A stretch of 64,000 bases of DNA, from NCBI GenBank assembly GCA_963662655.2, contig CAXXTU010000002.1, positions 1,088,001-1,152,000 of the forward strand. Reading direction: 5' to 3'. A program made the position numbers and the translations under genes. Positions 19,384-45,288 of this stretch are shown piece by piece; position 1 is the stretch's first letter; each line of letters starts with the position of its first letter. The DNA comes from Candidatus Cloacimonadales bacterium (GTDB taxonomy: Bacteria > Cloacimonadota > Cloacimonadia > Cloacimonadales > JAIOQZ01). The notes below the pieces were generated by a model. It was not told where the DNA came from and ran no database searches. It saw only the letters and a list, made by a program, of their open reading frames with translations.

Positions 19384-19410
19384 ATACACCTCCGGGATAT
19401 CTTGTATCGC

Positions 19411-21500: not shown

Positions 21501-21626
21501 GGCAAGAGCAGATTCGTTCGATCTCCCCCCTCAACGTGGTGTTCCACATCATTTCTTTACGCTCGATAGTCCAGATGATGTGGTATATCCACGTTGAGAG
21601 GGGAGATCGGGCGAAGATGCCGCGCC
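21501..21626 (+). repeat. Structured palindromic element, copy 1
   Basis: TTCGTTCGATC...CGTGGTGTTCCAC...GTGGTATATCCACG...GATCGGGCGAAG; also present at 27411 and 45134. Confidence 0.85.
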
Positions 21627-21714
21627 GGTCGCGATTCTTTGCTTGACACCCGGATGAAGGATGAAAACAGTATCCATTCACAGAGCATTCTCTCGTAACA
21701 AAAGGAGTTAGATC

Positions 21715-22707
21715 ATGTTGAAAGTGGGAGTCATAGGCGTTGGACACCTCGGAAGGCACCACGCCAGAGTATTGAATCAGATCGAAGGTTGCCAAATGAT
21801 GGGCATCTACGACCAGAATCTTGAACGCGCGCATGAGATCGGGGCACAGCACAATATCCCTGTCTTCGATACACTGGAAGCGCTTCTGGATGCGGTGGAC
21901 GCTGTAGACATCGCGGTAACCACGACATATCATTACGACATTGCCAAAGCGGCACTGGATGCAGGCAAGCATATATTTGTGGAAAAACCGATTACATCGG
22001 AACTCGTACAGGCGGAGGAATTGGTAGCGCTCGCGGAGAAGAGAAAGCTAAAACTTCAAGTGGGCCATATCGAACGCTTCAATCCGGTTGTTCTGGATGC
22101 CTTTGATCAAATCAAGGATCCGATGTTCATCGAATCACATCGCCTGGCTCCTTTCAATCCGCGCGGAAGCGATGTTCCGGTCGTACTCGATCTGATGATC
22201 CACGATATTGATTTGATTCTTTCCTTTGTTAAGAGTAAAATCGTCGATATCAGAGCGAGCGGGGTTAGTATTCTCACCAAGTCGATCGACATTGCCAACG
22301 CCCGGCTGGAATTCGAGAATGGAGCGATCGCGAATGTGACTTCAAGCCGTGTTTCGCAGAAGCAGGAGCGCAAGATCAGGCTTTTCCAGAAGAATGCATA
22401 TATATCGATGGATTTCAAAGAGAAAAACGTGAAAATTCTCAAGAAATCCCCGAAACTGATCAAGGTTCTTCCCAAAATAATGGCGGGAAAAACAGATTTC
22501 AACCCTGAGGATCTAGTCAATATACAGGACATCGATTCCAATGATCATCCAAAAGATGCGCTGACATACGAGCTTGAATCGTTCGTGAACGCGGTCAACA
22601 AGAACAAAACGCCCATCGTGGACGGGAAAGCCGGCACAAGAGCGTTGCGGATCGCGTTCGAGATCATGAACCGCATCAAGGAGAATCCTCAGAATCTCAA
22701 GATTTAG
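21715..22707 (+). CDS. Gfo/Idh/MocA oxidoreductase (resembles GnnA UDP-GlcNAc 3-dehydrogenase)
   Basis: GVIGVGHLG, FVEKP, QVGHIERFNP and DVPVVLDLMIHDID motifs. Confidence 0.85.
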   Translation: MLKVGVIGVGHLGRHHARVLNQIEGCQMMGIYDQNLERAHEIGAQHNIPVFDTLEALLDAVDAVDIAVTTTYHYDIAKAALDAGKHIFVEKPITSELVQAEELVALAEKRKLKLQVGHIERFNPVVLDAFDQIKDPMFIESHRLAPFNPRGSDVPVVLDLMIHDIDLILSFVKSKIVDIRASGVSILTKSIDIANARLEFENGAIANVTSSRVSQKQERKIRLFQKNAYISMDFKEKNVKILKKSPKLIKVLPKIMAGKTDFNPEDLVNIQDIDSNDHPKDALTYELESFVNAVNKNKTPIVDGKAGTRALRIAFEIMNRIKENPQNLKI

Positions 22708-22716
22708 GAGAAAATA

Positions 22717-24012
22717 ATGAAAGACGTATTCATTAAATACATTGACCAGAACATCGGTGAGGAAGTGCGAATTCGTGGCTGGGTAAGAAACTACCGGTCC
22801 AGCGGAAAACTTATTTTCATCATCCTACGCGACGGAACCGGAGAAATCCAGGCTGTGGCCTTCAAGCCGTCACTGGGCGAAGAGGCGTTCGAACAGGCGA
22901 AGAAACTCACGATGGAATCTTCACTCATTGTTACCGGCGTGCCGAAAGAGCACCCCAAGCAAAAAGGCGTTTTCGAGCTGGACGTGACCGGCATCGAAAT
23001 CATCCAGATCGCGGACGAATACCCGATCGGTAAAAAGGAGCATGGCCCCGATTTTCTGCTTTCGAATCGTCACTTGTGGCTGAGAAGCAGCAAACAATGG
23101 GCGCTTCTCCGGCTTCGTCACGGCGTTTACCACGCCATCTGCGATTACCTGCATCAAAACGAGTTCATCCGTTTCGATTCACCCATTCTTACGCCAAATG
23201 CATGCGAAGGCACAACAACCTTGTTTGAGGTTCCTTACTTCGATCTTGGCAACGCCTACCTTTCTCAGTCCGGCCAGCTCTATCTTGAGCCGGCCATACT
23301 CAGCTTCGGTCGAGTATACGATTTCGGCCCGGTTTTCAGAGCGGAGAAATCGAAAACGCGCAAGCATCTTACCGAATTCTGGATGATGGACGCGGAAGCC
23401 GCTTTCGTGGAGCACAAGGAAAATATGGATATCCAGGAAGGCTTGATCCGTCACGTCGTTCGCACAATGATAGAAAACTACCGTAACGAGCTGGAAATTC
23501 TCGAGCGCGATATCGAGCAGCTTTCGAACGCAGATGCTCCTTTCAAACGCATAACACATCGCGAGGCCATCGACCTCCTGAAATTGAAAGGCGCGGATGT
23601 AGAATACAACAGCGATTTCGGAGCACAGGAAGAATCTATGATTACAGAAGAATCCGACGTGCCGGTCTTTATCGAGAAATGGCCGAAGGAAATCAAGGCA
23701 TTCTACATGAAGCGCGATCCCGAGAACGAAGACCTCGTTCTGGGTGCCGACCTCATCGCCCCACAAGGATTCGGTGAGATCATCGGCGGTTCTCAGCGCG
23801 AGGACGACTACGATGTTCTGCTTGGAAGAATTCGTCACGAGAAGCTCAACGAAGAAGATTTCCAGTGGTATCTCGATACACGCAAATACGGTTCGGTGCC
23901 ACACAGCGGTTTCGGGATTGGGCTCGAGCGCCTCACCGCCTGGGTCGGTGGCGTTCACCACATCCGAGAGGCGATACCATTTCCCAGAATGATCTACCGC
24001 ATCCAGCCGTAG
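22717..24012 (+). CDS. asnS: Asparagine--tRNA ligase
   Basis: OB-fold N-terminus; YLSQSGQLY; FRAEKSKTRKHLTEFWM; EIIGGSQRE; PHSGFGIGLER. Confidence 0.95.
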   Translation: MKDVFIKYIDQNIGEEVRIRGWVRNYRSSGKLIFIILRDGTGEIQAVAFKPSLGEEAFEQAKKLTMESSLIVTGVPKEHPKQKGVFELDVTGIEIIQIADEYPIGKKEHGPDFLLSNRHLWLRSSKQWALLRLRHGVYHAICDYLHQNEFIRFDSPILTPNACEGTTTLFEVPYFDLGNAYLSQSGQLYLEPAILSFGRVYDFGPVFRAEKSKTRKHLTEFWMMDAEAAFVEHKENMDIQEGLIRHVVRTMIENYRNELEILERDIEQLSNADAPFKRITHREAIDLLKLKGADVEYNSDFGAQEESMITEESDVPVFIEKWPKEIKAFYMKRDPENEDLVLGADLIAPQGFGEIIGGSQREDDYDVLLGRIRHEKLNEEDFQWYLDTRKYGSVPHSGFGIGLERLTAWVGGVHHIREAIPFPRMIYRIQP

Positions 24013-24029
24013 GGACCTTTGAAATTGCC

Positions 24030-24065
24030 GCCCCATCCATAGTGGGTGGGGCTTTCACTTTTTTT
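24030..24065 (+). terminator. Rho-independent terminator
   Basis: GCCCCATCCA/TGGGTGGGGC stem followed by a T-tract. Confidence 0.75.
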
Positions 24066-24246
24066 GCGAAACAGGCTCAGGGAGAATCAGCCATGGCCAA
24101 CCGTCGAGGCACTTTCGCCCAATCCCGCTTCCAGCGTGTAACGATACGTTTTCAACGTATAAGAACACGCTTCCAGCCAGGCGATTGAACGAAATTGTTC
24201 TCGACTCGCAGTAGCTCCCGTTTTAATAGACGGGCCAGGGAGAAAG

Positions 24247-25392
24247 ATGCATCATTATCAGCAGTTCGGTACATATTTCGGCCAGACAGCCGGCGGGATG
24301 GAGAATCTGGCAGCGCAGGAGCTGGAGCGTCTAGGCGCAACGCGCGTCACGCCGCAGCAACGCGGCGTCCTTTTCGAGGCGGACAAGCGTACCTTGTACC
24401 GCGTCGTGTACAACGCGCGACTGTTCAGCCGGGTGCTGGCGACGATCACCACATTCTCCTGCCACGATACCGACTACCTCTACAGCAAGGCCGGTCAAAT
24501 CGACTGGAGTGAATTCATAGCTCGCGATCAGACCTTCGCGATTTTGCACCACGCCGCCAACAGCAAAATTCAGCACTCGCAGTTTGCAGCGCTTCGTCTC
24601 AAAGACGCGATCTTCGATCAACTGCGCGAGACCTACGGGCAGCGTCCGGCCATCGACCGCAAGCAGCCGGACATCTGGCTCAATCTGGTGATACACAACA
24701 ACCGCGCGAGCATCAATTTCGACTGCGCAGGCCACGCCTTGAACAAGCGCAGCTACCGCAAGCAAGGCGTGGAAGCCCCCATGCAGGAAACGCTGGCCGC
24801 CGCGATCGTTATGCACAGCAAGTGGGACGGTGAAACGCCCCTGCTCGATCCCTTCTGTGGAAGCGGAACCATCCTCGCCGAGGCGTTGATGAGCTACTGC
24901 CGTATCCCAGCGTCGTACCTGCACGATTCCTTCGGCTTCATGAACCTGCCCGACTTCGATCCCACCGTTTGGAAGGAGGTTCTGGAAGAGGTCGACATAC
25001 GTCCGTTACCGGAAGAACTGATCCGAGGCAGCGACGTCGATCCCCGCTCCATCGAGGCGTCCCGACTCAACCTCTCGCAGCTGCCGCATGGTGATAAAAT
25101 CGCGCTCAAGCAAATCGATTTCCACGACCTCCCCGAGCAGCCCGGCATCACCGTAATCACGAATCCGCCCTACGGCGTCCGACTCAAGAAAAACAACATC
25201 GAGCAGCTCTACAAGGATTTCGGAGCATTCCTGCGCAACAACTGCCCGGGAAGCGACAACTACGTATATAGCACGGAATTGGAATTACTGAAATGTATGA
25301 ATCTGCGTCCACGCTGGAAGAAATCGCTCAACAACGGCGGACTGGACGGAACGCTCTACAAGATGCTAGTGTTTGGAAAGCGCAGTATATAA
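24247..25392 (+). CDS. THUMP-domain class I SAM-dependent RNA methyltransferase (RlmL/YpsC-like)
   Basis: APMQETLAAA, LLDPFCGSGT and ITNPPYG motifs. Confidence 0.9.
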   Translation: MHHYQQFGTYFGQTAGGMENLAAQELERLGATRVTPQQRGVLFEADKRTLYRVVYNARLFSRVLATITTFSCHDTDYLYSKAGQIDWSEFIARDQTFAILHHAANSKIQHSQFAALRLKDAIFDQLRETYGQRPAIDRKQPDIWLNLVIHNNRASINFDCAGHALNKRSYRKQGVEAPMQETLAAAIVMHSKWDGETPLLDPFCGSGTILAEALMSYCRIPASYLHDSFGFMNLPDFDPTVWKEVLEEVDIRPLPEELIRGSDVDPRSIEASRLNLSQLPHGDKIALKQIDFHDLPEQPGITVITNPPYGVRLKKNNIEQLYKDFGAFLRNNCPGSDNYVYSTELELLKCMNLRPRWKKSLNNGGLDGTLYKMLVFGKRSI

Positions 25393-25418
25393 AGGCTTTC
25401 TTTAGGCATTTACCATAT

Positions 25419-26192
25419 TCATTTCATTTTGTAAGCTAATCCCTCAGGAGATATTATAGAAAAACCATATTTGTTCCGAAGCCATCGAAGATTTCGGGGG
25501 CTCAGCACGGAATTGGGACCTGCAGATTTTGCTTGGTCCCTTGTGCAAAAATAGTCACACCCTAAAGCAATACTTATTGCTACTGAATCTCCATCTGCTC
25601 ATTCAGCGGCTGCTTTAGCAATTTCTTTTGAAAATTCTGCTGGGGCATCCTGTATACCTTTAATCCAATGTTTATTATATCTATATCCAATTTCTTTGAT
25701 ATGAGCAACGCCTGCATTGTTACTTTCGATTTCCCTAGCAATTTCAAATACTCTCTTATGGTACTCATCCAATTTTCTTCCAGTGAATTTCATTCTATAT
25801 GGTTCAATACTATCATTAATCAGACCTCCAATTCGAGGTAACCGCACAATTCGAAAACCAAGCTGAATTGCATCGTTGAGATGATTCTTCAATATTGGGT
25901 TACTATCCAAATTTAAAGGCTCACCCGGCCCAATTGAAAACCTCACTCCTAAATATCCATTTATTTTTCTTTCTTCTGCTTTTATATTTTGTTTTGTTCC
26001 TCCTATGATCGATTTTCTTTGCTTTTTATTTATAGCCTCTATTGTAAAAACAGTCTCAGAAATGTATGCAACAAGCGACTCCATTCGCACAGCATCATTA
26101 ATTAACAGAAAATCATCTATAGCAGGTTCATTCGTAAAAACTGATGGTGTAGCAACTATTCTCCACACGTTGGAATCAAACATGATATCCAT
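25419..26192 (-). pseudogene. AT-rich PIN-like gene interrupted by an in-frame TGA (25599-25601)
   Basis: RBS GGAGG then MDIMFDSNVW...AAAE*ADGDSVAISIALGCDYFCTRD...MK*; the frame continues 59 codons past the TGA. Confidence 0.65.
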
Positions 26193-26325
26193 AACGCCTC
26201 CATTAAATAACAATTGCAATATCTTTTAAATAATAGTCAAGTTTTATCACGCACAAAACAATAGCGGCAACCCATCTACACTCATGTTGCTAATAAAATA
26301 CATATCGATATGCTTGGAACGTTTA

Positions 26326-27298
26326 TCAATAAATCCCGCGCACCAGAATAAACGTCGATACCGCAATCACCAGAAAAAGCACGCTACCCATGATCAGCGA
26401 GCGAACACCACTCTGGCGAATCGCCTTGAATTTCACGGACAATCCCATTGCAGTCATCGCGAAAAGGATCAGCCAACCGCTTGCCTTCGCGAAAACCTTC
26501 GTCACACCCACAGGGACAATACCCAGACTATTGACGACCCCGCAAAGCACAAAGAACAGCACGTAGTACGGGAATTTTACCCTAGCTTTCCTGTCACCCG
26601 CGTCTCTGCCTCTCAGACTGAAGAAGAGCGCGACCGGCACCAGCATCAGCACCCGTCCCATCTTCACGATCGTACCGAGCTCACCCGCCTTGTCTCCGCC
26701 GGCAAACGCCGCCGCCAGCGCGTGCGCAACGCCCTGGAGGGATATGCCCGACCACACTCCGAACTGCTGAACATCGAGTACGTGGTGCGTCGCGATGAAC
26801 GAGTATACCACGCACGCCGATCGCTCCGAGGAAATTCACGATGGACACCGCCACCACAGACTCCTCCCGCTTTGCCTTAACGATTGGCGACATCGCGACA
26901 ATCGCCGACGCGCCGCAGATCCCGGAGCCTATTCCAACAAGCACCGGAACCTTGTCGCGAATGCGGAAGACCCGTCCCAAAATGTAGGCGATATAGATCA
27001 CGACGGGAGTGAAAACTACGATCAGCGCCAGCGTCCGGAAGCCCAGATGAAGAACCGCGGAGAAGTCGAGCTTGAATCCAAGCAAAATGATCCCGTATTG
27101 CAGCAGGTGCTTCGTGCTGAATTTTATACCCGGCTCCACCGAGTCGGGTAGCGTAATTGCATTCGAAAGCGCCATCCCGATGATGATCGCCAGCGTCACC
27201 GCCTCGAGCGGAACGAAAGCCTTCAGCCATTCGTTTAAAAAATACGCCGCAATCGATATCGCGACGACCAGTACCAGTCCATGTATCGTTTTCTTCAA
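26326..27298 (-). pseudogene. YeiH/UPF0324 (putative sulfate exporter) membrane protein with a +1 frameshift
   Basis: N-half (LLQYGIILLG, GSGICGASAIVA) and C-half (WSGISLQGVAHA, VKMGRV, AMTAMGL) are in different frames; they join near 26811. Confidence 0.8.
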
Positions 27299-27410
27299 AA
27301 TACACCCCGTCAATTCTTGAGGCAAAGAATTTCGGGGTACGGTAAATGTCAATCGCGCAGTTGTTAATTATGCGTTATAAATGGTGACTGGCCGATGTCA
27401 GCCCATCTGA

Positions 27411-27592
27411 GGCGAGAGCAGATTCGTTCGATCTGCCGCGACGACGTGGTGTTGCACATTTAATTTTCGGCTTCGACATTGTCGAAACGAAACCATGAAC
27501 GTTGTGATTTCGTTCCTCGAAATCATGTTAGTGGATAGTCAGATGTGCTATATCCACGTTGGAGCGGCACGATCGGGCGAAGATGCCACGCC
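27411..27592 (+). repeat. Structured palindromic element, copy 2
   Basis: Same conserved blocks as copy 1, with a longer branched apical region. Confidence 0.85.
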
Positions 27593-27598
27593 GGTCGT

Positions 27599-28060
27599 CT
27601 ACTTCCCGACCTGTCTCCGGTAAATCCTCGAGCGCTCTCCGCTGGGATCGAAGCCGTCCTCCATGCGGATCCACCCGAATTTCTCGTAGTAGCCGTCGTG
27701 ATCCGTCGTGAGGTACATCTCGCCAAAGCCTATCCGAGCCGCGTCCTTCTCCGCGCGATCCATCATCAGGCTCGCAAGTCGCTTCCCGCGATACTTCTCC
27801 TCCACGAACAGGCACGCAAACCACGGCTGTAAGTCGTGCCGGCTGATGAAATCGTTCGCGATGAGCGCGCTACACCCCGCAATCTCGTCGCCATCCAGCA
27901 GGAGATAGAACACCGGAAGACTCGTAGCGTCAGCCGAACTGTGGACGACGGCATCCAGGTAGAAGGGGAAATTGCTCTCCCGCCCCCACTTGCCGTGAAT
28001 ATACCGCGCCGCCGCTTCAATCCCTTTTGAAAATTCGTGGGCATTTATGATTTGGTACAT
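27599..28060 (-). CDS. GNAT family N-acetyltransferase
   Basis: PWFACLFVEEKYRGKRLA and YYEKFGW motifs. Confidence 0.9.
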   Translation of the reverse strand: MYQIINAHEFSKGIEAAARYIHGKWGRESNFPFYLDAVVHSSADATSLPVFYLLLDGDEIAGCSALIANDFISRHDLQPWFACLFVEEKYRGKRLASLMMDRAEKDAARIGFGEMYLTTDHDGYYEKFGWIRMEDGFDPSGERSRIYRRQVGK

Positions 28061-28286
28061 ATATCCTCCAACTGAGTGTAAGACGTCAATTTACTTTCAT
28101 ATCCTGTCAAGTCATTCACGCATTATTTCCTTATGTAAAGATTCACCTTTTTTCCCTTGACGAAAAGACGCGAAGATGAAATAGATTTATATTGAATGAA
28201 TGTGAGCATCAGGATGCACGTATTCTCATCATTCCATTGGAGATACGCACACGTAACGCATCCGCTGAAAAGGAGATGTAACTCGT

Positions 28287-29192
28287 ATGAAGCAACTGAA
28301 ACGACTCAGCGATATCGCTCAAGTCATCCGCGAACAAGGCAAAAAGAAGCTCGCGGTCGCCTACGCTCAGGATCCCAACACCATCGAATCCATCGATATG
28401 GCCGTCAAGGAAGGCATCGTGGATGCGTACATGATCGGGGACAAGGAGCGCATTATCGCCACAGCGAAAGAGAAGAGTATCGATCCCGAATCTTTCAACA
28501 TCGTTCATGTCCCGGACGAGCTGGAATCCGCCAGAGAAGCCGTGCGCATGGTTCGCAGCGGCGAAGCGGACGTCCTCATGAAAGGGCTTGTATCAACCGA
28601 TAAATATCTCAAATCGATCCTGGACAAGGAAAAGGGGCTCCTGCCTCCGGGCAACGTCCTCAGCCACGTATGCGTCGTGGACATTCCCAAGTATCACAAG
28701 CTGATCTTCCTCGCGGATACGGCTGTTATCCCCTTCCCGGACCTGAGCCAGAAAATTGCCATGCTGAACTACACCATCGCTACCGCGCACAAGTTCGGCG
28801 TGGAGATGCCCAAAGCCGCGCTTCTCACTGCGACCGAGAAGGTCAACAGCAAGTTCCAGGCGACGATCGACGCCAGCATCATCTGCAAGATGGCGGACCG
28901 CGGCCAGATCAAAGGCGCGATTGTCGACGGCCCGATGGACTTGTTCCTCGCGTGCGACCCGGCAAGCGTGGAGATCAAGGGAATCGAGTCGCCTGTCGCG
29001 GGTGACGCGGACATCCTCATCTTCCCCACCATCGAAGCGTCGAATCTGTTCTACAAAGGCGTGATGCTTTTCGCAGGCGGCGAGCTGGCGGGTCTCCTTC
29101 AGGGAACCACCCACCCGGTCATCGTCACCTCGCGCAGCGAAAGCACCATGTCCAAGTACTATTCCATCGCAGCAGGATGTCTCACAACATAG
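28287..29192 (+). CDS. ptb: Phosphate butyryl/acyltransferase
   Basis: ADVLMKGLVST, VDGPMDL, GDADILIFPTIEASN and PVIVTSRS motifs. Confidence 0.85.
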   Translation: MKQLKRLSDIAQVIREQGKKKLAVAYAQDPNTIESIDMAVKEGIVDAYMIGDKERIIATAKEKSIDPESFNIVHVPDELESAREAVRMVRSGEADVLMKGLVSTDKYLKSILDKEKGLLPPGNVLSHVCVVDIPKYHKLIFLADTAVIPFPDLSQKIAMLNYTIATAHKFGVEMPKAALLTATEKVNSKFQATIDASIICKMADRGQIKGAIVDGPMDLFLACDPASVEIKGIESPVAGDADILIFPTIEASNLFYKGVMLFAGGELAGLLQGTTHPVIVTSRSESTMSKYYSIAAGCLTT

Positions 29193-29209
29193 ATTCACAG
29201 GAGGGTGTT

Positions 29210-29653
29210 ATGAAAATCGCATTGGGAGCGGATCACGCAGGATTCGCCATGAAAGAAGCCATCAAGCAGGCGCTTGTGGAAGATGGCCGGCACGAAGTCA
29301 TCGATTTCGGCACGAACAGCGAGAAGTCCATCGACTATCCCGATTACGGATTCCAGGCTGCGACAGCGGTCGCGACAGGCGAATGCGAGCGGGGAATTCT
29401 CGTGTGCGGCTCCGGTATCGGCATGAGCATCGTCGCGAATAAGGTCAAAGGCGTGCGCGCGGCGCTGTGCCACATGAAGGACTTCGCCATTCTGTCACGC
29501 ATGCACAACAACGCCAACGTGCTGGTTCTTCCCGGGAGATTCATCTCGCATCACTACGCCAATGAAATCGTCGATGTATGGCTCTCCACGGAGTTCGAGG
29601 GCAACCGTCACCAGAACCGGCTGAACAAGATCACGGACTACGAGAAGCAATAA
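29210..29653 (+). CDS. rpiB: Ribose-5-phosphate isomerase B
   Basis: [23 protein letters not shown] and FEGNRHQNR motifs. Confidence 0.95.
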
Positions 29654-29715
29654 AGAAGTTTATCGTTGATAAAGAGATCAATAGTCAAAATAATACAATG
29701 AAAGAGGTACCCATT

Positions 29716-31026
29716 ATGATGCACATCAAAAAACAGGATCCCGAAGTATTCGAAGCCATGTTCGCCGAACTGAAACGTCAGTCGGAAAACCTGGAACTGA
29801 TCGCTTCCGAAAATTTCGTATCACCCGCGGTTCTCGAAGCTGCCGGCTCGGTTCTCACCAACAAATACGCCGAAGGCTATCCCTACCGCTGGAGCAAGAA
29901 GACCGACAAGATCAACTACAATCTCTACGGTCGCTACTACGGCGGCTGCGAGTACGTTGACGACGTCGAGGAACTCGCCATCGAACGCGCGAAAGAACTT
30001 TTCGGCGCGGAACACGCCAACGTTCAGCCACACTCCGGCTCACAAGCCAACATGGCTGCCTATTTCGCGCTGCTCAAACCGGGTGACACTATCCTCAGTC
30101 TCGAGCTCTCGCACGGCGGACACCTTACACACGGTCATCCACTCAGTTTCTCAGGCGCACTTTTCAATATCGTCCCCTACGGCGTGGACAAAGATACGGA
30201 GATGTTCGACTATGACGAAATCCGCCGCATCGCCCTCGAGGTGAAACCTCAGCTCATCCTCACCGGCGCGAGCGCATATCCCCGCACGATCGATTTCGAA
30301 GCCTTCCGCAAGATCGCGGACGAAGTCGGCGCTAAATTCATGGTCGATATGGCGCACATAGCGGGACTCGTTGCTGCGGGACTGCATCCGAATCCCGTTC
30401 CTTACGCAGATGTCGTTACGACCACCACCCACAAAACGCTGCGCGGACCACGCGCAGGCCTGATCCTCTGCAAGGACGAGTACGCCAAAGCGATTGACCA
30501 GTGGGTATTCCCGGGATGCCAGGGCGGACCGCTCATGCACATCATCGCAGCGAAAGCCGTCGCATTCAAGGAAGCGCTTCAGGACGATTTCAAGGACTAC
30601 CAGAAGCAGATCGTGGAAAACGCTCGCGCGCTGATGGTTGGGCTCCTTAAACGCGGCTTCCGCCTCGTCTCCGGCGGAACCGACAACCACCTCATGCTCA
30701 TCGACCTCGGCACGGAAGAGTCGGGCGGACCTTCGGGAAAGAAGATGGAAGGTGCGCTAGACAAAGCCGGTATCACCGCGAACAAGAACACCGTTCCATT
30801 CGATACCCGCACCCCGTTTGTCGCTTCGGGTATCCGCCTGGGAACCCCGGCAGTTACCACGAAGGGACTCAAGGAAGCCGATATGGATCAGGTGGCCGAA
30901 TATATCAAGATGGTTTACGATAACTACGATAATGACGAAAAACTTGAAGAAATTAAAACACAGGTTCGTGCATTCAGCGCTAAATTCCCTCTGTATGCTG
31001 ACCTTATTGCTGAATATCGGAAATAG
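29716..31026 (+). CDS. glyA: Serine hydroxymethyltransferase
   Basis: [30 protein letters not shown] and SGIRLGTPA motifs. Confidence 0.97.
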
Positions 31027-31113
31027 TTGACCTCCGTCTGTTTACTCCGGGCTTATACGCGGTTAACAGGCAAAAGGTAAATCAGTTGTAAACAAAGCAG
31101 AAAAGGAGCTTTT

Positions 31114-34773: not shown

Positions 34774-34790
34774 GCTTGTAAACGATACTG

Positions 34791-34822: not shown

Positions 34823-34903
34823 ACTCGCTTTCCGGCAGCGCCATGCCTACCTGGTAACCACCGGCTGAACGAATCACCTAACTCGAGGCTGCCGGCAATC
34901 CAA

Positions 34904-35067
34904 CGCGGCGGGGCGGCGTTGTGCGCTCCGCGCACTAACAGGGCCTTCGGCTCTGTGGAATCACACAGAAAAGCCCGATACGTATTTACGCACATTCAAA
35001 GGTAGTTCCTTCGATTCTTTGTAGATATGTATCGGGCAGATGTGTGATTCAACGCCGCCCCGCCGCG
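34904..35067 (+). repeat. Multi-branched inverted-repeat structure (candidate ncRNA or miniature element)
   Basis: Perfect 18-bp terminal IR CGCGGCGGGGCGGCGTTG enclosing three further stems. Confidence 0.7.
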
Positions 35068-35092
35068 CGGTCAGCAACAACTCGCCGATTGC

Positions 35093-35518: not shown

Positions 35519-36192
35519 ATCTTACCCAGCGCCTTTTCGAGCACCAACCTCTTCCGTTGGTTATGGCAGGTATCATTCCGGCTTCTTGCATACGCTCGTT
35601 CTATTGAACTTCCTGCGTAACGCAGCTCATCGATCGCCTGAGGAATTTCCATCTCGATCAGGCTCAGAATTGTATAGTAAAACGGGTAGCGTTTCCAGCG
35701 ACCTTTACCGTCACGTACCGCGGTGAGTTTCGACAAGCCATTGGCCAACCGCCTCTCCTGCTGATCGCCTCCCCCGGAAGCCAGATGTCGCCATAGCGAA
35801 ACCGAACAGATTCCACAGCACCAGCTTCCCCAGGGAGCTCCCGGCTTGTCATGCCCACTCAACATCCCGAGGAGGGTCTCTCGAACCGCCTTATGTATGC
35901 CGAGCCGCTTCCCGGGATCAAGAAGCAGTAAAGCCCGACCGGCCTCTTCGCTCAAGATGTGCGCTGTTCCAGCACCAGAAGTAATCTTTTCGCCCGTAAA
36001 GACCATGAATCCCTGCTCAAAATCCCTTTGGGTTGGAGCGAACAATCCCCTATACGCTCGGGGCTTGTTAAAACGACTGCTAATCCATGTTATAGCCTCT
36101 TCTACATCTCCATCAGGTATCCTCTCGCCACTGAAGAATACCTCATTAACACGGTCGATCGTCACTCCAAGGCTATCTCGATCTACTAACAT
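35515..36192 (-). CDS. Hypothetical protein with a CCxxC motif
   Basis: RBS GGAGGTG; ATGA overlap with the next gene; WCCGICS. Confidence 0.75.
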   Translation of the reverse strand: MLVDRDSLGVTIDRVNEVFFSGERIPDGDVEEAITWISSRFNKPRAYRGLFAPTQRDFEQGFMVFTGEKITSGAGTAHILSEEAGRALLLLDPGKRLGIHKAVRETLLGMLSGHDKPGAPWGSWCCGICSVSLWRHLASGGGDQQERRLANGLSKLTAVRDGKGRWKRYPFYYTILSLIEMEIPQAIDELRYAGSSIERAYARSRNDTCHNQRKRLVLEKALGKI

Positions 36193-36311
36193 AACACCTC
36201 CGATATGATGTAAATGATGCAGTTAGATTTTTCAGTCAAGCGTTTCGTACGGATTCATCCATATTTTTTATTGACACAGTAAACGCGCTTGAGAATGCTG
36301 TCATTCGTCGT

Positions 36312-36390
<79 letters not shown>

Positions 36391-36454
36391 TTTCAAGATG
36401 CCTCTGGATTTCCTTGACAGGAAATCTTCCATAAGGAATATGGAAAAACCTTGT

Positions 36455-36530
36455 GGGTGCTTAGCTCAGTTGGGAGAGCGCCTGCCTTACAAGCAGGTGG
36501 TCAGCGGTTCAAGTCCGTTAGCACCCACCA
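36455..36530 (+). tRNA. tRNA-Val(TAC)
   Basis: GGGTGCTTAGCTCAG...CCTGC-CTTACAA-GCAGG...GCACCCACCA. Confidence 0.96.
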
Positions 36531-36683
36531 TTTTTTTACCCAAACCCACAATATTATCCAATCTTAATATATTTGAGCAAACAAATGACATCCCCTGCTA
36601 CATCAATGGACTTGTTTACTAAATAGCCAAAATTGACCTGCACTGCACGCTGCAGCGGTTCATCGCTGGCGCTTCGTAATCTT

Positions 36684-37847
36684 CTATCTCACCGTTTTCC
36701 ACATGGGATTGGCTTTGCCTCGCAGATAGGAGACAAAAGCCATCAGGGAGGCGTAGAACATCGTAAAGAAGTACGCGGCAGGCTTGAAGATTTTCACGCC
36801 GTTTCCGCGATTCTCCAGATGGAACTCGAAACTGCCCGTGAGAAGAATGATGTCCAGCCCAACCGCAAACAACGAGTAGAACCACTGCCACAAGCTGGAG
36901 AATCCATTCATGAGCGAGGACACGAAGACAACGTTAAGGGAAATCGTCATGCCGATGACGTATAAGAAAAAGAGCCAGCGAATAACCTTGTGCGAGATCA
37001 GAATCCAGGATACCGCCGGAAACTTGAAGGGGTTGAGCAAGGATGGATGGCGGAAGAGCGATTTCCACTCTCTGGAGATGATACGGACTTTCCGGCTGAA
37101 CTCTTCCCGTGGCTTGGTAGTGGTTTTCTCCGTAACCCGGGCGCGATCGTTGAACTTACCGATATACCCGGCTTTAAGCGCCATCAGCGTTCGCTCGAAA
37201 TCGTCTATGGCGCTCACGGGCAACTGCTTGAAGAGGTTGCGGCGGATCATGAAGATCGAGCCATTGGCGCAGTTGATCGTGTACACTTTGCTGCTTATCT
37301 TCTTGAGGAACGATTCGTACTCCCAGTAAACGCCCTCGCCGGAATCGGCCTGGTTGTTCTTCTCGAGCGTGAGCTTACCGCCCACGACGCCGATGCGGTC
37401 GGAGGCAAGCATGGAAGAAAGGAGCTCTTTCATTGCCTGGGGATGGAAGATGGAATTGGCATCGGTGGAAACCACAAAATCGCATTTCAGCGTCGGTTCC
37501 ACGAGATTGTGCCCTGCAACCTTTCCCTGCCGGGGTTTCTGCACAACCAGACTCACATTGGTTCCCGTGTATCTCTCGACGATCTCGTTCGTCCCGTCGG
37601 TGGAGTCGTCGGAAATGACGATCATATCGATACGATCCTTCGGATAATCGAGTTCATGGAAGGACTTAATCTTGCGCTCGATAACGTCCGCTTCGTTGTA
37701 AGCGGGGCACAGCACCGTAATACGTGGATATTGAGTCACTTCCACCCGTTTCTCGCGTTTGCCTATCGAGAGGAGCGCAAGAATCATCGGGTAGCCGATC
37801 AAGTGATATACAAGGATCCCAAAGCTAATCCAGAAAAGCCAAATCAT
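36684..37847 (-). CDS. GT2 family glycosyltransferase (membrane-bound)
   Basis: PAYNEA, SDDSTDGT, STDAN and IDDF motifs; start ATG 37847 abuts the upstream stop. Confidence 0.9.
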   Translation of the reverse strand: MIWLFWISFGILVYHLIGYPMILALLSIGKREKRVEVTQYPRITVLCPAYNEADVIERKIKSFHELDYPKDRIDMIVISDDSTDGTNEIVERYTGTNVSLVVQKPRQGKVAGHNLVEPTLKCDFVVSTDANSIFHPQAMKELLSSMLASDRIGVVGGKLTLEKNNQADSGEGVYWEYESFLKKISSKVYTINCANGSIFMIRRNLFKQLPVSAIDDFERTLMALKAGYIGKFNDRARVTEKTTTKPREEFSRKVRIISREWKSLFRHPSLLNPFKFPAVSWILISHKVIRWLFFLYVIGMTISLNVVFVSSLMNGFSSLWQWFYSLFAVGLDIILLTGSFEFHLENRGNGVKIFKPAAYFFTMFYASLMAFVSYLRGKANPMWKTVR

Positions 37848-38863
37848 CAATTCAATTCCTTTATCTTTATATCTTCCAGCACAGCGTCCAGCACCATCTG
37901 AGGCTTCAGATGCAGCAAACACTCGCGATTGCACGTTCGTTCTTTCAGGCTCAAGCAAGGCTTGCAAGCCGGAGCAGGTTCAAGCTCAATAATTAATTTA
38001 TTCCCGGTGAAGGGACCGGTTACCCTCGCATTCGCAGGACCGAAGATCGTGTAGATTCTCGTTCCGAAGCAGCTCGCGATATGCCCCATGCCCGAGTCGG
38101 AATTCAGCAAGTACTGAGTCCGGGACAGAAGCGCTGCGACCTGGCTGAGCTTGATCCCGGATACGAGCGGGATGTCTGTCTCGCGGCAAATCCGCTTGCT
38201 GACGTCCATCTCATCCGGTCCGCTAATGACATAAGGTACATGTTCAGGCAATCTTTTTTTCATGATTTTCACAAATTCAACGAAATACTCGGCATGCCAT
38301 CGACGGAAATCGTTCTCCTTGTTGCTTCCGGCATGGATCGCGAACAGCGTCTTTCCCGTCCACCCATTGTCCTGGATCATGCGATCGGCAAACCCGTAAT
38401 CGCTTGGCTCGACCATGAAGAACGGCTTCCCCAGTTCGAGCTTGCCCAGCACCGATTCTGCCAGCTTCTGATTCCCGATGGTCCGGTGCTGTGCAGGATC
38501 GTACTGCACCTGATCCGTATAATTCTTCATTCTGCACTTGCGATACTCGCCCACTCGGCGTTTTGCTCCGACTAACCGGGAAAACAACGATCCCTTTTCG
38601 GGCGTCACTCCGGATGTCACGATCGAGATATCGTATTTTACGCTTCTGAGCTGAAGTGCCTTGAGCAACAAGCTGAACTTGCGGTTGGGGGCAGTGTGGA
38701 TCGTTCCGCACTCCGGGGCATTCTCCAACGGCAACATGGCCGCTTTCTGCGTTATCAGAAAATCCACCCACGCATCGGGATGCTTTGTCTTGATCGCCTT
38801 CAGCACGGGAGTGAACATGATCATGTCCCCCATGCCCCATGTGTGAATGACAAGGATTTTCAC
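37847..38863 (-). CDS. GT9 family (heptosyltransferase-like) glycosyltransferase
   Basis: KILVIHTWGMGDMI, NSDSGMGHIA and IFGP motifs. Confidence 0.9.
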   Translation of the reverse strand: MKILVIHTWGMGDMIMFTPVLKAIKTKHPDAWVDFLITQKAAMLPLENAPECGTIHTAPNRKFSLLLKALQLRSVKYDISIVTSGVTPEKGSLFSRLVGAKRRVGEYRKCRMKNYTDQVQYDPAQHRTIGNQKLAESVLGKLELGKPFFMVEPSDYGFADRMIQDNGWTGKTLFAIHAGSNKENDFRRWHAEYFVEFVKIMKKRLPEHVPYVISGPDEMDVSKRICRETDIPLVSGIKLSQVAALLSRTQYLLNSDSGMGHIASCFGTRIYTIFGPANARVTGPFTGNKLIIELEPAPACKPCLSLKERTCNRECLLHLKPQMVLDAVLEDIKIKELN

Positions 38864-40143
38864 AGAACTTCCTTTATCAACGACGCCATTTGGCCGCTCA
38901 GATGGATCGCGTTGTATTGGTCGATACCATCCAACCGTATCCCCTTGCGGAACTCCTCACGATCCAGGCTTGCCGCCTTCGTCAGGAGGTTCACCATTTC
39001 CTGGACATCGTCGTTGTCGCAAACGAAGCCGATATTGAGTTGCCGGATGAGCTCCGCGGCCGCTCCGGTGTGCGAACTGAAGCTGACCATGGGAATCCCC
39101 ATGAAGGCGTATTCGTACATCTTGCTGCTTCGCGCCTGTTCGGCGGTCTGAGGATAATAGAAATGCAGCAGCACGTCGGCGCGTTGAAGCTTTCCGAGCA
39201 ATTGGTCGCGCGGCACGAAGCCGGGCGTCACGATATCGTCACGAGAATACTGGTCGATAAGCTTCTGCGTATCATCGTTGAGCCCCCAGTATATTTCCAG
39301 AACCGGTTTCTTTCCCTGCCACGTTGCCCGGAACCGTTCCCAGGCCTTCAGGAGCATGACCGGATTGTACTTGGTGTCGTGTACGTCCATCTTACCCGCG
39401 TAAGCAATCAGGAGACGCGAGTCGTCCTTATCGATTTCGTTCTGCTCCGTAAAATCAGCGGGGTCGAATCCGTTCGGGATCAATCTCACCGGGATATTCG
39501 TTCCTCTGACGTCATTCCGCAGCTCTTCCGCGTGGCTCTCCGTCAGACTGACCAGGGCGTCGCTGTGCTTGTAGCAATATTGGGAGATATGCTTGTTGAG
39601 GAACTTGCGAACAAACGAGAAGCTGCCTTCCAGGCTGTACGACCCCCAGGGATCGCGGAACTCTGATATAACCTTCACGCCGGTGAGGATTCTGATCAGC
39701 ACCGAAGCGACGATCAGCGAGAAGGGGCCGCCCGTCACGAGTATCGCCTTGATCTTGTGTTTTCTAATAATCTTGAGCATGGAGGGGACGCACCCGAGCG
39801 CCCAGAAAATATGGATGTCGGGCGAAGCGATCAAATCCTTGATAATGACCAGTAGTTTCAGAATAATCTTTTTGAGCGGAGACTTCTTGCCGGTGTAAAT
39901 GTTAACCGATTTCCGATACTGGTGATCGGGGAACCGGGTTGGGCTTCGATAGATCACCGCATTCTTCGGAACGCTCCCCATCAGCTTCTTGTTGATAGGA
40001 TATCCGGGATTGGATGCCGTGAGGATAACGGGCTTGATTCCGTACTGGCTGATGTATTTTACTGTGCGGATAATGCGAAAGGCGCCGGTTGTGTTGAGTG
40101 GCGCATAGCAAAAGGTGAAAACAAGAATAGGTATTTCGTTCAT
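38860..40143 (-). CDS. GT4 family glycosyltransferase
   Basis: TGGPFS, EFRDPW, IPNGFD and SKMYEY motifs. Confidence 0.85.
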   Translation of the reverse strand: MNEIPILVFTFCYAPLNTTGAFRIIRTVKYISQYGIKPVILTASNPGYPINKKLMGSVPKNAVIYRSPTRFPDHQYRKSVNIYTGKKSPLKKIILKLLVIIKDLIASPDIHIFWALGCVPSMLKIIRKHKIKAILVTGGPFSLIVASVLIRILTGVKVISEFRDPWGSYSLEGSFSFVRKFLNKHISQYCYKHSDALVSLTESHAEELRNDVRGTNIPVRLIPNGFDPADFTEQNEIDKDDSRLLIAYAGKMDVHDTKYNPVMLLKAWERFRATWQGKKPVLEIYWGLNDDTQKLIDQYSRDDIVTPGFVPRDQLLGKLQRADVLLHFYYPQTAEQARSSKMYEYAFMGIPMVSFSSHTGAAAELIRQLNIGFVCDNDDVQEMVNLLTKAASLDREEFRKGIRLDGIDQYNAIHLSGQMASLIKEVL

Positions 40144-40188
40144 ATCGTACTCAGTTGACGACGGGTTTATTACCTGGCACAATTCAGG

Positions 40189-40221
40189 AAAAAACCGCCC
40201 CCGTAGAGACGGGAGCGGTTT
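40189..40221 (-). terminator. Terminator after gdhA
   Basis: AAACCGCTCCCGT...ACGGGGGCGGTTTTTT on the minus strand. Confidence 0.8.
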
Positions 40222-40240
40222 AAAGAATGTATCATGTGTC

Positions 40241-41611
<1,371 letters not shown>

Positions 41612-42119
41612 TTAGTTTTTTTTGTCAATACAAAAAACAAATTTAGATTCCACGTTTTCTAATCTCCTTTATTTCCAGCATGTTAGCATATAGCGAGTCG
41701 TTGAATATTTGTTAAATCCATCTTTTACGAAGTTAGCCACCCAAATGAATCATCCTCATACACTTTTTACCATGGAGAGAATGCCCTAATCGATTCATTT
41801 GAAATTATTTCCTTAGTGATCCATTCACATCATTCTTGTGCCTGATTCCTTGACACTCGTGCTATTTTACGATAACGACAAACCGAACAACGTAACAAAA
41901 CAACAATCAGCAGCAATCCTATAACGTCAACCCCATAAAAATGCTGTTCGGCAACGTTTTCATGGAGTAATCATACTCAGTCTCTGAAAATGCAGCGTAT
42001 GAAACAGGTCGATAGAGCACGTCCCAATCTCTTGTAATCAGCTTCGACTCGCTTCCACCTTGACAGGAATCCTCTTTCCTCTATCTTATTGACAGCACAA
42101 TAATTGATGAGGATTTACC

Positions 42120-45119
42120 ATGAAAAAGCTCATTATCATGACTCTCCTGGCGCTGATCACTACCCTCAGCGCCACGCCGATATACATCGCGTTCCTCTGG
42201 CACATGCACCAGCCGATCTACTGGCCCTACGAGAACGTGAACGAGACACAAAACCACGGCTACTACAGCTATTCGCTGTACGATATCTTCAATCAACGTT
42301 ACGGCCCCTATACCACGTGGCCCAAAGACGCGGTGCAATCCGGAATGAACGCCGGATTCCAGCACTTCGGCGCGCAGGTGAGTTTCTCCGGTTCGCTCGT
42401 GGAGAACCTCAACAATCTCGAATCGAACGGGAACGGGAATTTCCAGAACTGGAAATCGAACTGGCAGTACATCGCGAACCAGCAAACCTCGCTGGGAAAT
42501 CCGCGCATGGACATGGTAGGATTCGGCTACCATCACCCGCTCATGGGGCTCATCGATTACGACGACATCCGCCGCCAGATTCAGGGGCACCGCGAGATGC
42601 TTTCCAGCAACGGCATGGGCGGAAACTCCAGCGGCATATTCCCTCCCGAGTGCGCATTCTCCCTCAAGATGATTCCAGCACTCACCGATGAAAATCTCGA
42701 TTGGGTGCTCATAGACAACATCCACCTGGAGCGCACCTGCGAGGGCTATCCGTTCAATACGGGAGGCAACATATACGAACCCAATCAGGCGGACATCCTC
42801 AACCCGAATCCAGGCGACTGGCTTCAGCTCAACGGGCTGTGGGCTCCGACGCAGGTTTCGCTGCAATGGGCGCATGTGCCGCACTATGTTCGGTACATCG
42901 ATCCCGTTACTGGTGACGAGAGCTCCATGATCGCGGTACCGGCGTCGCGATATTTGGGAACGGAGGACGCCCGTGGCGGGTTCGGAGCGCTCAACTACGA
43001 CGATGTCATGAGTCAATTCGAGGATGCCAACACCGATTCCGATCATCCCATCCTGATCGTCCTTCACCACGACGGCGACAACTACGGTGGCGGCACCGAT
43101 TCCTACTATCACAGCAATTTCTCGCAATTCGTGAGTTGGCTTCAAAGCAATCCGGATCGCTTCGTCTGCACGACAATCCAGGACTATCTGGAGATGTTCC
43201 CGCCCGAGACCGGCGACGTCGTCCACGTGGAATCGGGAAGCTGGAGCGGGGCAGACAACGGCGACCCTGAGTTCAAGAAGTGGAATGGCGATCCTTATAG
43301 CGGCTACAGTCCCGACCGCAACAGTTGGGGCGTTATCACCGCAGCGAAGAACATCGTTCAAACCGCTCAACATGTCAATCCCAGCCACAGCGGAACAATC
43401 GCCGGCTGGCGTTTTCTGCTCAACGCTGAAACAAGCTGCTACTGGTACTGGGACGGATCCCAGAACGGCATTTGGGATTCGCATCCCACGCGCGGATCGA
43501 ACCTGGCCGTAGCCTCCGCGCTTACGGTGGCGCAGTCTGGCGAGGACAACACACCGCCCACGATTTACCAGCCGCAGCGCGAGCCTTACAATCCCGGCGG
43601 AAACGAGTGGAATCAGCCGCAGCCGTCCGATTTCACCGTCTGGAGCTACGTCTTCGACATGAGCGGACTCTCGTCTGTCACCCTCAAGTACCGCACGGAC
43701 ATTGATGGGATCAATTCCACGTCCACCAACCACAACGAGACCTTCGCGGGAGGAGCGGACGTAAACGCATGGCAATCGATCGCCATGGACGAGTCATGGA
43801 TCGATTCGCAGACAAACCCCGCGCCAACGTACAAGGCACATGAATACTCAGCCCAAATCACGAGTCAGAATAATGTCCTGATCGACTACTATATAGAAGC
43901 GGTAGATGAGGAAGGAAATATCGCCCGTTCCACCATCGAGCACGTTTTCGTCGGCTCATCGTCAGGTGGCTCGAACCTGAGCTGGGAGCCTGTCAATCCT
44001 ACGGAGGACGACGCAGTAACCATCACCATCACCGGAGTGTCGCAAGGAGCGATGCTGCATTGGGGCGTCAATCCGCAGGGAAGCACATGGCAAACCCCAA
44101 ACGAAGTGTACTGGCCCGATAACTCCAGTCTGTTCAACGGAACGGGCCCGGCCGTGGAAACTCCGTTCAGCGGTCCCGACGAGAACAACGAACTCACGCT
44201 CACCATCGGCCCGTTCAACAACGACGCGCAATCGATTTCCTCCGTATCTTTTGTGCTGCACTATGACGACGACAGCTGGGACAACAACAGCGGTAACGAC
44301 TATAACATTACCATCTCCGGTGGTGGCGGAAGCGAAACATACGTGATGGACGGGCAACTCGATCCCGGTGCGCAAGTGCTGGCGCAAGACGGTTCATACA
44401 CGCTCTACTACGCCTTCAACGGCATCGAATTGTATCTGGCAACCTCCTCGGCCCAAACAACCGGCAACGATACGTTCATCTTTGTCAGCTCATCACCCGG
44501 CGCAATGGTCGACGCACCCTGGGCGAAGGCAGGGCAGGTCGCACAGTGGGACGCTTTCATCGCCAACGAAAGTGCCAATAACTACAGCACCTGGGCCGAT
44601 CAGGACGCGCTTACCTCAATCGCTTGCGGAAGCTACCTGGAAGGCGTCATCAACGTAGATGGAGAGTGGGGATCGTCGGTTACACAACTCTATGCTGCAC
44701 TTGGGCTGTACCACTCCAACGACGACGGCGAACTGGTTTATCAGGCGCCGGCTGGAGACGGAAACGGCGATCTCGAAGCAAACGAATATCAGATGTTCGA
44801 GCTCGACATCACATCCACGGATTCCCCGGATGTCACTCCCGCATCTCTCGTACTCGAGCAAAACGCACCCAATCCCTTCAATCCGGAAACGAGAATACGA
44901 TTCTCCCTGCCGGACGGAAACATGACTAGGCTGGAAATTTACAACATCCGAGGACAGAAGGTAAAAACTCTTGTTAGCCAGTTCATGAGTCAGGGGAATC
45001 ATTCAATTGTCTGGAATGGAAAAGATGATTCAGGGAAACCTGCCGCCAGCGGTATCTATTTGTACAAACTCACCAGCGGTCGCAGCGCTTTGGCAAGGAA
45101 GATGCTGCTGCTGAAATAA
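42120..45119 (+). CDS. Secreted GH57-family alpha-glucan hydrolase with accessory beta-domains and a FlgD-Ig tail
   Basis: LWHMHQP (CSR-1), FPPECAF (nucleophile Glu), HHDGDN (acid/base Asp) and AETSCYWYW; CBM-like WDNNSGNDY; NAPNPFNP tail. Confidence 0.85.
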   Translation: MKKLIIMTLLALITTLSATPIYIAFLWHMHQPIYWPYENVNETQNHGYYSYSLYDIFNQRYGPYTTWPKDAVQSGMNAGFQHFGAQVSFSGSLVENLNNLESNGNGNFQNWKSNWQYIANQQTSLGNPRMDMVGFGYHHPLMGLIDYDDIRRQIQGHREMLSSNGMGGNSSGIFPPECAFSLKMIPALTDENLDWVLIDNIHLERTCEGYPFNTGGNIYEPNQADILNPNPGDWLQLNGLWAPTQVSLQWAHVPHYVRYIDPVTGDESSMIAVPASRYLGTEDARGGFGALNYDDVMSQFEDANTDSDHPILIVLHHDGDNYGGGTDSYYHSNFSQFVSWLQSNPDRFVCTTIQDYLEMFPPETGDVVHVESGSWSGADNGDPEFKKWNGDPYSGYSPDRNSWGVITAAKNIVQTAQHVNPSHSGTIAGWRFLLNAETSCYWYWDGSQNGIWDSHPTRGSNLAVASALTVAQSGEDNTPPTIYQPQREPYNPGGNEWNQPQPSDFTVWSYVFDMSGLSSVTLKYRTDIDGINSTSTNHNETFAGGADVNAWQSIAMDESWIDSQTNPAPTYKAHEYSAQITSQNNVLIDYYIEAVDEEGNIARSTIEHVFVGSSSGGSNLSWEPVNPTEDDAVTITITGVSQGAMLHWGVNPQGSTWQTPNEVYWPDNSSLFNGTGPAVETPFSGPDENNELTLTIGPFNNDAQSISSVSFVLHYDDDSWDNNSGNDYNITISGGGGSETYVMDGQLDPGAQVLAQDGSYTLYYAFNGIELYLATSSAQTTGNDTFIFVSSSPGAMVDAPWAKAGQVAQWDAFIANESANNYSTWADQDALTSIACGSYLEGVINVDGEWGSSVTQLYAALGLYHSNDDGELVYQAPAGDGNGDLEANEYQMFELDITSTDSPDVTPASLVLEQNAPNPFNPETRIRFSLPDGNMTRLEIYNIRGQKVKTLVSQFMSQGNHSIVWNGKDDSGKPAASGIYLYKLTSGRSALARKMLLLK

Positions 45120-45133
45120 TACCAATAAGCCAA

Positions 45134-45288
45134 GGCGTGAGAGAATTCGTTCGATCAGACAGTGAAGACGTGGTGTTACACGATGCAATGCGTGCGGAAA
45201 GATTTGATTTTGCCGATTATCGCCATCCACGCATGGAATCGTGTTATATCCACGGCGGAACGGGCTGATCGGGCGAAGGCTCCACGCC
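45134..45288 (+). repeat. Structured palindromic element, copy 3
   Basis: Same conserved blocks, more diverged; lies between convergent genes. Confidence 0.8.

Follow-up and report, generated by a model that had tools for sequence, protein, structure and literature searches.

The described systems closest to the element considered here are bcr1 of the Bacillus cereus group, a repeat of about 155 bp present in 11-130 copies (PMC3184786, PMC6542083, PMC6199540, PMC3446304), and the REPINs, described as extragenic hairpins with compensatory changes (PMC3116915). To these can be added the attC sites of sedentary integrons, the folding strand of which lies, in 25 of 30 cases, on the leading-strand template (PMC5371416), the IS608-type Y1 enzymes, which are described as using the lagging-strand template (PMC6006769), and the MITEs (miniature inverted-repeat transposable elements) of the DDE type, among them Correia, RUP and ERIC (names in part tabulated in PMC3184786). 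A long-hairpin element dispersed in a stretch of 64 kb of a Candidatus Cloacimonadales chromosome (G000:C2:1088001-1152000, hereafter the window) resembles several of these, but lacks features by which REPINs, attC sites, DDE MITEs and the ends of IS200/IS605 are defined, and was not shown to belong to any named family. An earlier note on the window had listed three copies as either a structure-selected non-coding RNA family or a single-stranded DNA (ssDNA) hairpin substrate. The element proves to be a genus-specific family of real, structure-conserved hairpins, and on balance we consider it probably a non-autonomous mobile ssDNA hairpin of the bcr1/REPIN kind, handled at the replication fork by a putative protein.

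Instead of three copies, the genome carrying the window (G000, a member of a Cloacimonadales genus with three congeners, G001-G003) holds about 135. The outer-box model gave 138 hits, reduced to 135 by removal of two evident false hits and one duplicate, and none in a 2-Mb shuffled control; with degenerate remnants, added by score and by hand, the number rises to 146. Two-box matrices paired 120 left and right halves, 115 with both halves above 30 bits, and these 115 type A copies underlie the anatomy counts below, while strand stability refers to 169 copies, covariation to an alignment of 47 sequences drawn from the four genomes and the congener comparison to 2.0 Mb of congener DNA. At least 32 copies are present in G001, their positions pooled from separate searches, and the family totals about 185 sequences that form a natural alignment.

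From base to tip, each copy starts with a variable terminal stem of 6 bp and a bulged A, continues through an outer box, a spacer of 9-12 nt and an inner box to the apical stem, and closes in an apex that varies between copies; beyond the terminal stem, pairing stops. The outer box contains tandem G.A/A.G mismatches in 96-97 of 115 copies and T.G wobbles in 100 and 102 of them. The most conserved feature is the inner loop TGTT x TATAT, with T.T in 115, G.A in 113, T.T in 114 and the extra T in 115 of the 115 copies; minor types possess a TGTT x TCAT inner loop in either arm order. Most type A copies (80/115) are 120-139 nt long, with a mode at 125-130 nt, and a second class of 180-189 nt comprises 19/115.

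The left spacer, on the other hand, occurs as 105 distinct sequences in the 115 copies and is matched to its own partner, with a pairing energy of -21.3 kcal/mol versus -10.6 when partners are swapped. In the 47-sequence alignment, 91.6% of cells pair, versus 74.5% in shuffles and 32-44% in slid controls, the latter comparison being inflated as the structure was defined from the same sequences, and 30 of 40 pairs vary on both sides, which supports the earlier proposal that selection for structure acts on the family. Variable-stem cells comprise 1482 Watson-Crick, 116 G.T and 21 A.C combinations, and because G.T so far exceeds A.C, the as-read strand is the folding strand. It is also the more stable strand in 160/169 copies with DNA parameters and in 165/169 with RNA parameters; the strand preference claimed for the window holds family-wide but, with DNA parameters, not for copy 1, where both strands are equal (-37 versus -38 kcal/mol).

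The nested layers form a mosaic, with a Mantel rho of 0.07-0.09, and of 35 pairs of copies with near-identical spacers 16 differ in apex class. The branched apex module is tandemly repeated in one copy of 395 nt, and one copy has an outer arm that has become an almost perfect complement, the outcome expected of template switching. Internally deleted copies are located at G000:C2 203,865, 1,733,421 and 3,426,297; two of them retain the right inner box alone as apex, which fits slippage between the two GTG frames, and the third retains the outer box alone.

In the window (Table 1), the three listed copies stand where they had been placed, with the boxes, the C/G, G/C and A/T covariation beside the CAC and GTG triplets, the spacers of 11/11, 11/12 and 12/12 nt, the branched apex of copy 2 and the divergent, tandem and convergent gene contexts as described. 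Their common orientation does not extend to the whole window, as a fourth copy lies on the minus strand, placed after the terminator-like hairpin of asnS. RNA folding z-scores of copies 1, 2 and 3 are -9.1, -7.0 and -5.8, with 0/200 shuffles as stable, and a lookalike of copy 3 with a similar upstream flank is located at G000:C2:597080. The locus is not an assembly artefact, because short-read contigs, which appear to derive from the same organism, match the window over 20000-21586 and 21753-25480 with zero differences; no second strain emerged from them.

Table 1. Copies of the hairpin element in the window and layers of copy 1 (window positions)
Feature	Position	Strand	Score
Copy 1, type A, short apex, between divergent genes	21501..21626	+	covariance model, 118.9 bits
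Copy 1, outer box 5' arm; with 21605-21620 forms tandem GA/GA loop and two T.G wobbles	21508..21523	+	
Copy 1, variable spacer 5' arm; partner 21594-21604	21524..21534	+	
Copy 1, 5' arm of inner box; frame GTG-N6-CAC; carries TGTT side of invariant internal loop	21535..21547	+	
Copy 1, apical stem and apex; commonest apex class	21548..21579	+	
Copy 1, inner box 3' arm; TATAT side of invariant loop	21580..21593	+	
Copy 1, outer box 3' arm	21605..21620	+	
Copy 4, diverged type B, inner-loop sides swapped, GAA/GAA 3x3 loops, short apex	24103..24206	-	49.7 bits
Copy 2, type A; apex branched (class of about 183 nt); flanked by tandem minus-strand genes	27411..27592	+	88.3 bits
Copy 3, type A; apex extended; flanked by convergent genes with FlgD-like C-termini	45134..45288	+	81.1 bits

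The conserved loops are of a kind described for DNA. When loops are classed with RNA parameters, GNA/GNA accounts for 66 of 87 3x3 internal loops and GNA for 14 of 40 triloops, with only 2/47 GNRA and 0/47 UNCG among the tetraloops; an energy-free count finds 29 GNA among 128 possible triloops versus a genome background of 8%. Triloops of the branch arms are GNA in 17/27, and C-GAA-G or C-GCA-G forms the tip in 12 of 20 short copies. C:G-closed d(GNA) triloops are described as very stable in DNA (PMC3201870), while the RNA counterpart tested for a related mini-hairpin was much less stable and functional RNAs are said to prefer GNRA and UNCG (PMC13037366); GGA/GGA zippers of sheared G.A pairs have likewise been described as DNA motifs (PMC11014236). 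Because of the GNA-type loops and a replichore polarity independent of gene direction, folded ssDNA is favoured over RNA as the functional form, so that of the two possibilities left by the earlier note the second gains ground.

This polarity is pronounced. The origin of G000 is marked by dnaA at C2 2,766.5 kb and the skew minimum; its terminus was placed from the skew maximum (809 kb) together with a dif-like site (796.6 kb; G000:C2 about 796,600, minus strand, near the GC-skew maximum). The as-read strand lies on the C-rich strand, the leading-strand template by the standard skew rule, in 96/135 copies of G000 (p=1e-6), in 31/32 of G001 (p=1.5e-8; replichores from dnaA and local skews) and in 13/16 of G003 (0.4 Mb). 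Majority and minority polarity stand at 30:8 beside tandem leading-strand genes, 13:6 beside tandem lagging-strand genes (not significant), 13:0 at divergent pairs and 33:14 at convergent pairs, and as the bias holds across leading-gene, lagging-gene and divergent contexts it is not a by-product of gene direction; beside tandem genes, copies are sense and antisense in 21:36. The exceptions in G000 cluster where skew is weak (5:17 below 0.02, 87:21 above), as expected if some copies were later inverted. Biased insertion or biased loss could each have produced the polarity, and the two are inseparable here. The C-terminal domain of SbcD (PF12320) has no match in eight genomes of the host family, which may ease tolerance of long hairpins and is not specific to the genus.

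The family is confined to the genus. By blastn it is present in 3/3 congeners and in 0/37 other genomes of the order; the covariance model finds it in G000, G001 and G003 and in 0/148 other genomes of the phylum (best 23 candidates per genome scored). Exact patterns gave 17 hits over the species collection, 16 of them in Cloacimonadales-titled records and the seventeenth without the left half, and none in viral or metagenome contigs, and blastn found none in plasmid or phage collections. The Rfam comparison proposed in the earlier note returned only four tRNAs in the window at gathering threshold and nothing over the element up to E 0.5-1. The family is apparently undescribed, no description having been found in a literature covered mostly as open-access papers without supplements.

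Copies are intergenic, with only 2/117 overlapping a called open reading frame (ORF), and stand in 57 tandem, 47 convergent and 13 divergent contexts, convergent gaps being preferred (47/117 copies versus 202/1020). Their spacing is irregular (median 20 kb, mean 31 kb, standard deviation 32 kb), seven tail-to-tail doublets occur, two of them with degenerate partners, and no two copies are identical, identity between any two short copies being at most 94%. The 3' ends of genes with an FlgD/type IX secretion system-type C-terminal motif are enriched for copies (33/169 versus 78/777, p=0.001). One copy adjoins the 3' end of a xerD-like gene 1.5 kb past the right end of the window (L019:3445-3571 and 3581-4486; G000:C2 1,153.4-1,154.5 kb), while at those xer loci of G001 and G003 that were inspected an IS200-like gene and different repeats take the place of the element. 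In G001, a thiamine pyrophosphate (TPP) riboswitch (L047:391-482) lies about 50 nt downstream of a copy.

Positions turn over between species. The comparison of filled and empty loci, proposed earlier between strains and run here between congeners, covers 18 gaps of conserved gene order with a copy on either side, of which 13 comparisons (12 loci) are occupied in G000 only, two in G003 only and three in both; in two of these three the copies agree in orientation but differ in subtype, and in the third they point opposite ways. At two convergent pairs the genes overlap in G001 and the G000 gap consists almost entirely of the element. From such differences we infer active mobility rather than loss only. 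No signal of target duplication is apparent, the flanking direct repeat averaging 3.31 nt versus 3.36 nt with shuffled partners (135 copies). A copy with 98% identity and identical flanks is shared by G002 (L046) and G003 (C4 1,074,110), which suggests recent horizontal transfer of the region.

Several observations weigh against a mobile ssDNA element. Insertion points are not resolvable at the roughly 75% protein identity between congeners. Gene ends beside a relative's copy also carry a G000 copy in 22/78 cases versus a background of 12-17% (p=0.012), and because this exceeds background some copies are old or some sites reused. The absence of identical copies is unlike a recent burst, and 39/135 copies of G000 have the opposite polarity. 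Copies are related, so that counts over them are not independent. RNA is also stabilised by G.A-closed 3x3 loops, tandem G.A and G.U pairs. Family-profile searches and neighbouring genes, surveyed in place of a whole-proteome annotation, provided no candidate mobiliser common to all four genomes of the genus; in particular Y1 (PF01797), present in G001-G003, has no match in G000, the genome richest in copies, and a profile from 11 congener Y1 proteins reached only E=0.42 against G000 six-frame peptides. Finally, compensatory changes are described as producible by template switching without selection (PMC8794818); the invariant loops are the better evidence of selection, because template switching would erase their mismatches.

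The search for an enzyme was broad. Seven Y1 loci of the genus were inspected (four further genus matches were left out) and are flanked by other repeats, with no copy of the element; these Y1/RAYT-like genes of G001-G003 (L008, L009, L011, L013, L014, L015, L018) each have a distinct repeat family of their own. Four full-length tyrosine recombinases of G000 score 61-128 bits on the integron integrase model TIGR02249, well below its cut-off of 265, and can be assigned to XerC, XerD or island integrases; a family-wide TIGR02249 search was blank and its control silent too, as was the control of the search for Y2 (PF04986), with matches in 0/5 genomes. IS110 (PF02371) was found only in G002 and the resolvase PF00239 only in G001; TnpB (PF07282), the large serine recombinase PF07508, Rep_trans and Prim-Pol each had 0/8 matches in the host-family genomes, and DDE_Tnp_1 none in G001. 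Reverse transcriptase matches occur in 3/5 genomes, none in G001, and the G000 match contains one stop codon (L241:2550-4109; G000:C2 about 981 kb). The genes beside copies stand in all orientations and for the most part have ordinary housekeeping roles or encode secreted proteins, and the 51 genes considered among 86 listed beside clustered, doubled or shared copies include no mobility enzyme except the broken reverse transcriptase. No orphan ends bracket an autonomous version in G000 and 2 Mb of congener DNA, and the ends of three resident insertion sequence (IS) types that were read (other congener IS not included) are unrelated to the element. An HNH protein shared by the genus was set aside, as by eye it is a helicase of the DEAD/DEAH type and the sister genus has a match of similar size, and a reading of the inner box as a dif-like site or DnaA-box gave only partial matches by eye.

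bcr1 has a fixed orientation relative to replication, and the element and bcr1, by its published descriptions, are alike in being lineage-restricted, intergenic, variable in position, marked by compensatory changes that keep the fold and lacking a known mobiliser. On the same descriptions, bcr1 possesses 5-bp TTTAT direct repeats and an RNA-level cruciform, while the element has no flanking duplication and forms a single rod; invariant mismatch loops, GNA-type loops and exchangeable nested layers set it further apart, by description only. With REPINs it shares high copy number, an extragenic position, conserved ends, maintained spacer length and pairing and occasional inverted doublets (PMC3116915, PMC6006769, as far as these describe them), but it has no tagged REP palindrome (GTAG/GTGG at the foot in 5/135 copies on the as-read and 4/135 on the other strand), no RAYT, a longer conserved structure and strong replichore polarity. 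As described for sedentary integrons (PMC5371416), attC sites and the element alike keep structure over sequence, with two boxes, an unpaired central loop, a variable or branched tip and the folding strand on the leading-strand template, yet the element has no core triplets, no IntI and no cassette arrays, and its single copies are dispersed among core genes. The attC and REPIN logic invoked by the earlier note therefore extends to architecture only, and its remark that the attC RYYYAAC/GTTRRRY cores are missing holds for 115/115 copies (terminal 30 nt, either strand). DDE-type MITEs are similar in size, intergenic site and copy number, but differ from the element in its asymmetric ends with conserved mismatches and its lack of target duplication and of near-identical copies, and IS200/IS605 elements differ from it in that its better-folding strand lies on the leading-strand template, with no Y1 in G000 and no TnpB in eight genomes of the host family. 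The family is distinct by the combination of near-invariant DNA-type loops, stems compensated copy by copy, exchangeable layers, leading-template polarity and a missing enzyme.

As a mobile ssDNA hairpin, the as-read strand, when single-stranded at the fork, would fold into a rod of about 50 bp with nested layers, namely the terminal stem, the outer box, a spacer of about one helical turn that often holds a GNA/GNA loop, the inner box with its GTG-N6/7-CAC frame and the variable apex. A putative trans-acting protein would read the two non-canonical boxes and copy or insert the element into intergenic DNA without target duplication. The polarity would result from insertion into the leading-strand template or from faster loss of copies folding on the lagging-strand template, template switching would maintain pairing in the variable stems, and inner layers would be swapped when copies recombine at the boxes they have in common. 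A more specific conjecture, which we advance only tentatively, is that the element is the substrate of an undescribed ssDNA system, in which a protein that belongs to none of the Y1, Y2, IS110, serine, integron-integrase or reverse-transcriptase families might read the sheared G.A zippers and the TGTT x TATAT loop on the leading-strand template and insert the hairpin, or use the 30-140 polarised copies as fork-related signals and layer-exchange sites.

Other explanations account for part of these observations. The near-perfect polarity of G001, the sites common to several species and the survival of most copies intact though none are identical would also be expected of a domesticated chromosomal signal. 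In that case a host protein of replication or repair would bind the hairpin on the leading-strand template, to serve repriming, fork restart or pausing, and selection on the host would maintain the copies; no dedicated mobiliser was found, and mini-hairpins have been described at phage and plasmid priming sites (PMC13037366). We regard such a signal as unlikely, given its confinement to one genus, the roughly fourfold difference in copy number (at least 32 in G001 versus about 135 in G000), the irregular spacing, the differing occupancy of most orthologous gaps and the lack of a Prim-Pol match in eight genomes of the host family. Slightly more doubtful is that the copies constitute a multicopy structured RNA, or an element with an RNA intermediate inserting at the fork, the loops then being RNA motifs. 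RNAs commonly contain tandem G.A and tandem G.U motifs, the stems hold many more G.T than A.C combinations, and RNA parameters give the as-read strand the better fold in nearly all copies. In addition, bcr1 is described as transcribed with compensatory changes (PMC3184786). GNA triloops in place of GNRA and UNCG tetraloops nevertheless speak against RNA, as do an orientation that tracks the replichore with no preference for sense at tandem genes, the lack, at either end of copies 1 and 2, of a terminator or a promoter of sigma-70 type (one weak terminator-like hit lies inside copy 2), the stop codon in the G000 reverse transcriptase match and the absence of such a match from G001, and the lack of an Rfam match.

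That the copies might be dispersed attC-like single-strand recombination sites which shuffle gene blocks genome-wide appears improbable. Beyond the two boxes, the unpaired central loop, the variable apex and the leading-template preference shared with sedentary integrons (PMC5371416), the argument draws on the heavily shuffled gene order between congeners; in the window, positions 17,000-31,000 are conserved against G001-G003 in blocks of one to four genes. Copies are associated with synteny breaks with raw odds ratios of 6-9 or more, but enrichment is absent at convergent pairs (22:4 versus 82:11), and that in tandem gaps with at least 60 nt beyond the element (22.5:5 versus 110.5:133, p=0.0004) is confounded by operon boundaries, so that a genome-shuffling role is unsupported after stratification by gap type. 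Moreover, attC cores are absent, the tyrosine recombinases are XerC/XerD and island integrases only, the flanks are mostly ordinary genes in all orientations, and internal crossovers would spoil terminal stems that are paired within each copy. Least probable to us is a REPIN-type element, the RAYT of which was lost from G000 or resides in unsampled DNA: REPINs have the requisite hairpins with compensatory changes (PMC3116915) and G001-G003 hold several Y1/RAYT-like genes, but the seven inspected loci carry other repeats, the 11-protein profile finds nothing in G000, the foot lacks the GTAG/GTGG tag and Y1 enzymes are described on the opposite template (PMC6006769).

Other features of the genome were noted in passing. 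A 411-amino acid (aa) transposase-like ORF, which we take to be ISL3-like, occurs in 13 near-identical copies (at G000:C2 365,641 and 12 further sites), each bounded by short inverted ends within A/T-rich sequence, three of them within about 200 nt of a hairpin element, and an IS3-type element (Pfam rve, HTH_21) in eight copies (L021:3650-4897 and seven other places). Multi-gene blocks in three to four copies with 85-100% protein identity (G000:C2 about 477-510, 2,730-2,757 and 3,290-3,318 kb, C1 12-21 kb and C2 0-9 kb) are possibly a transposable prophage, and none carries the hairpin element. Genes resembling a type I-E CRISPR-cas set by eye are located at G000:C2 about 2,318-2,323 kb, and the window itself contains a 3240-aa ORF with a choice-of-anchor Q match (1881-11603) and two adjacent, equal-scoring tRNA genes (16927-17096).

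Covarying genomic hairpins are usually filed as RNAs; here the conserved features resemble folded-DNA motifs and the orientation tracks replication. If confirmed, the family would represent a rare case, on a large scale, of selection on ssDNA structure outside integrons and REPs, and it would point to a new protein that recognises ssDNA structures on the leading-strand template, the opposite of what is described for IS200/IS605 enzymes. With invariant loops so sharply defined, the spread of enzyme-less repeats such as bcr1 becomes testable.

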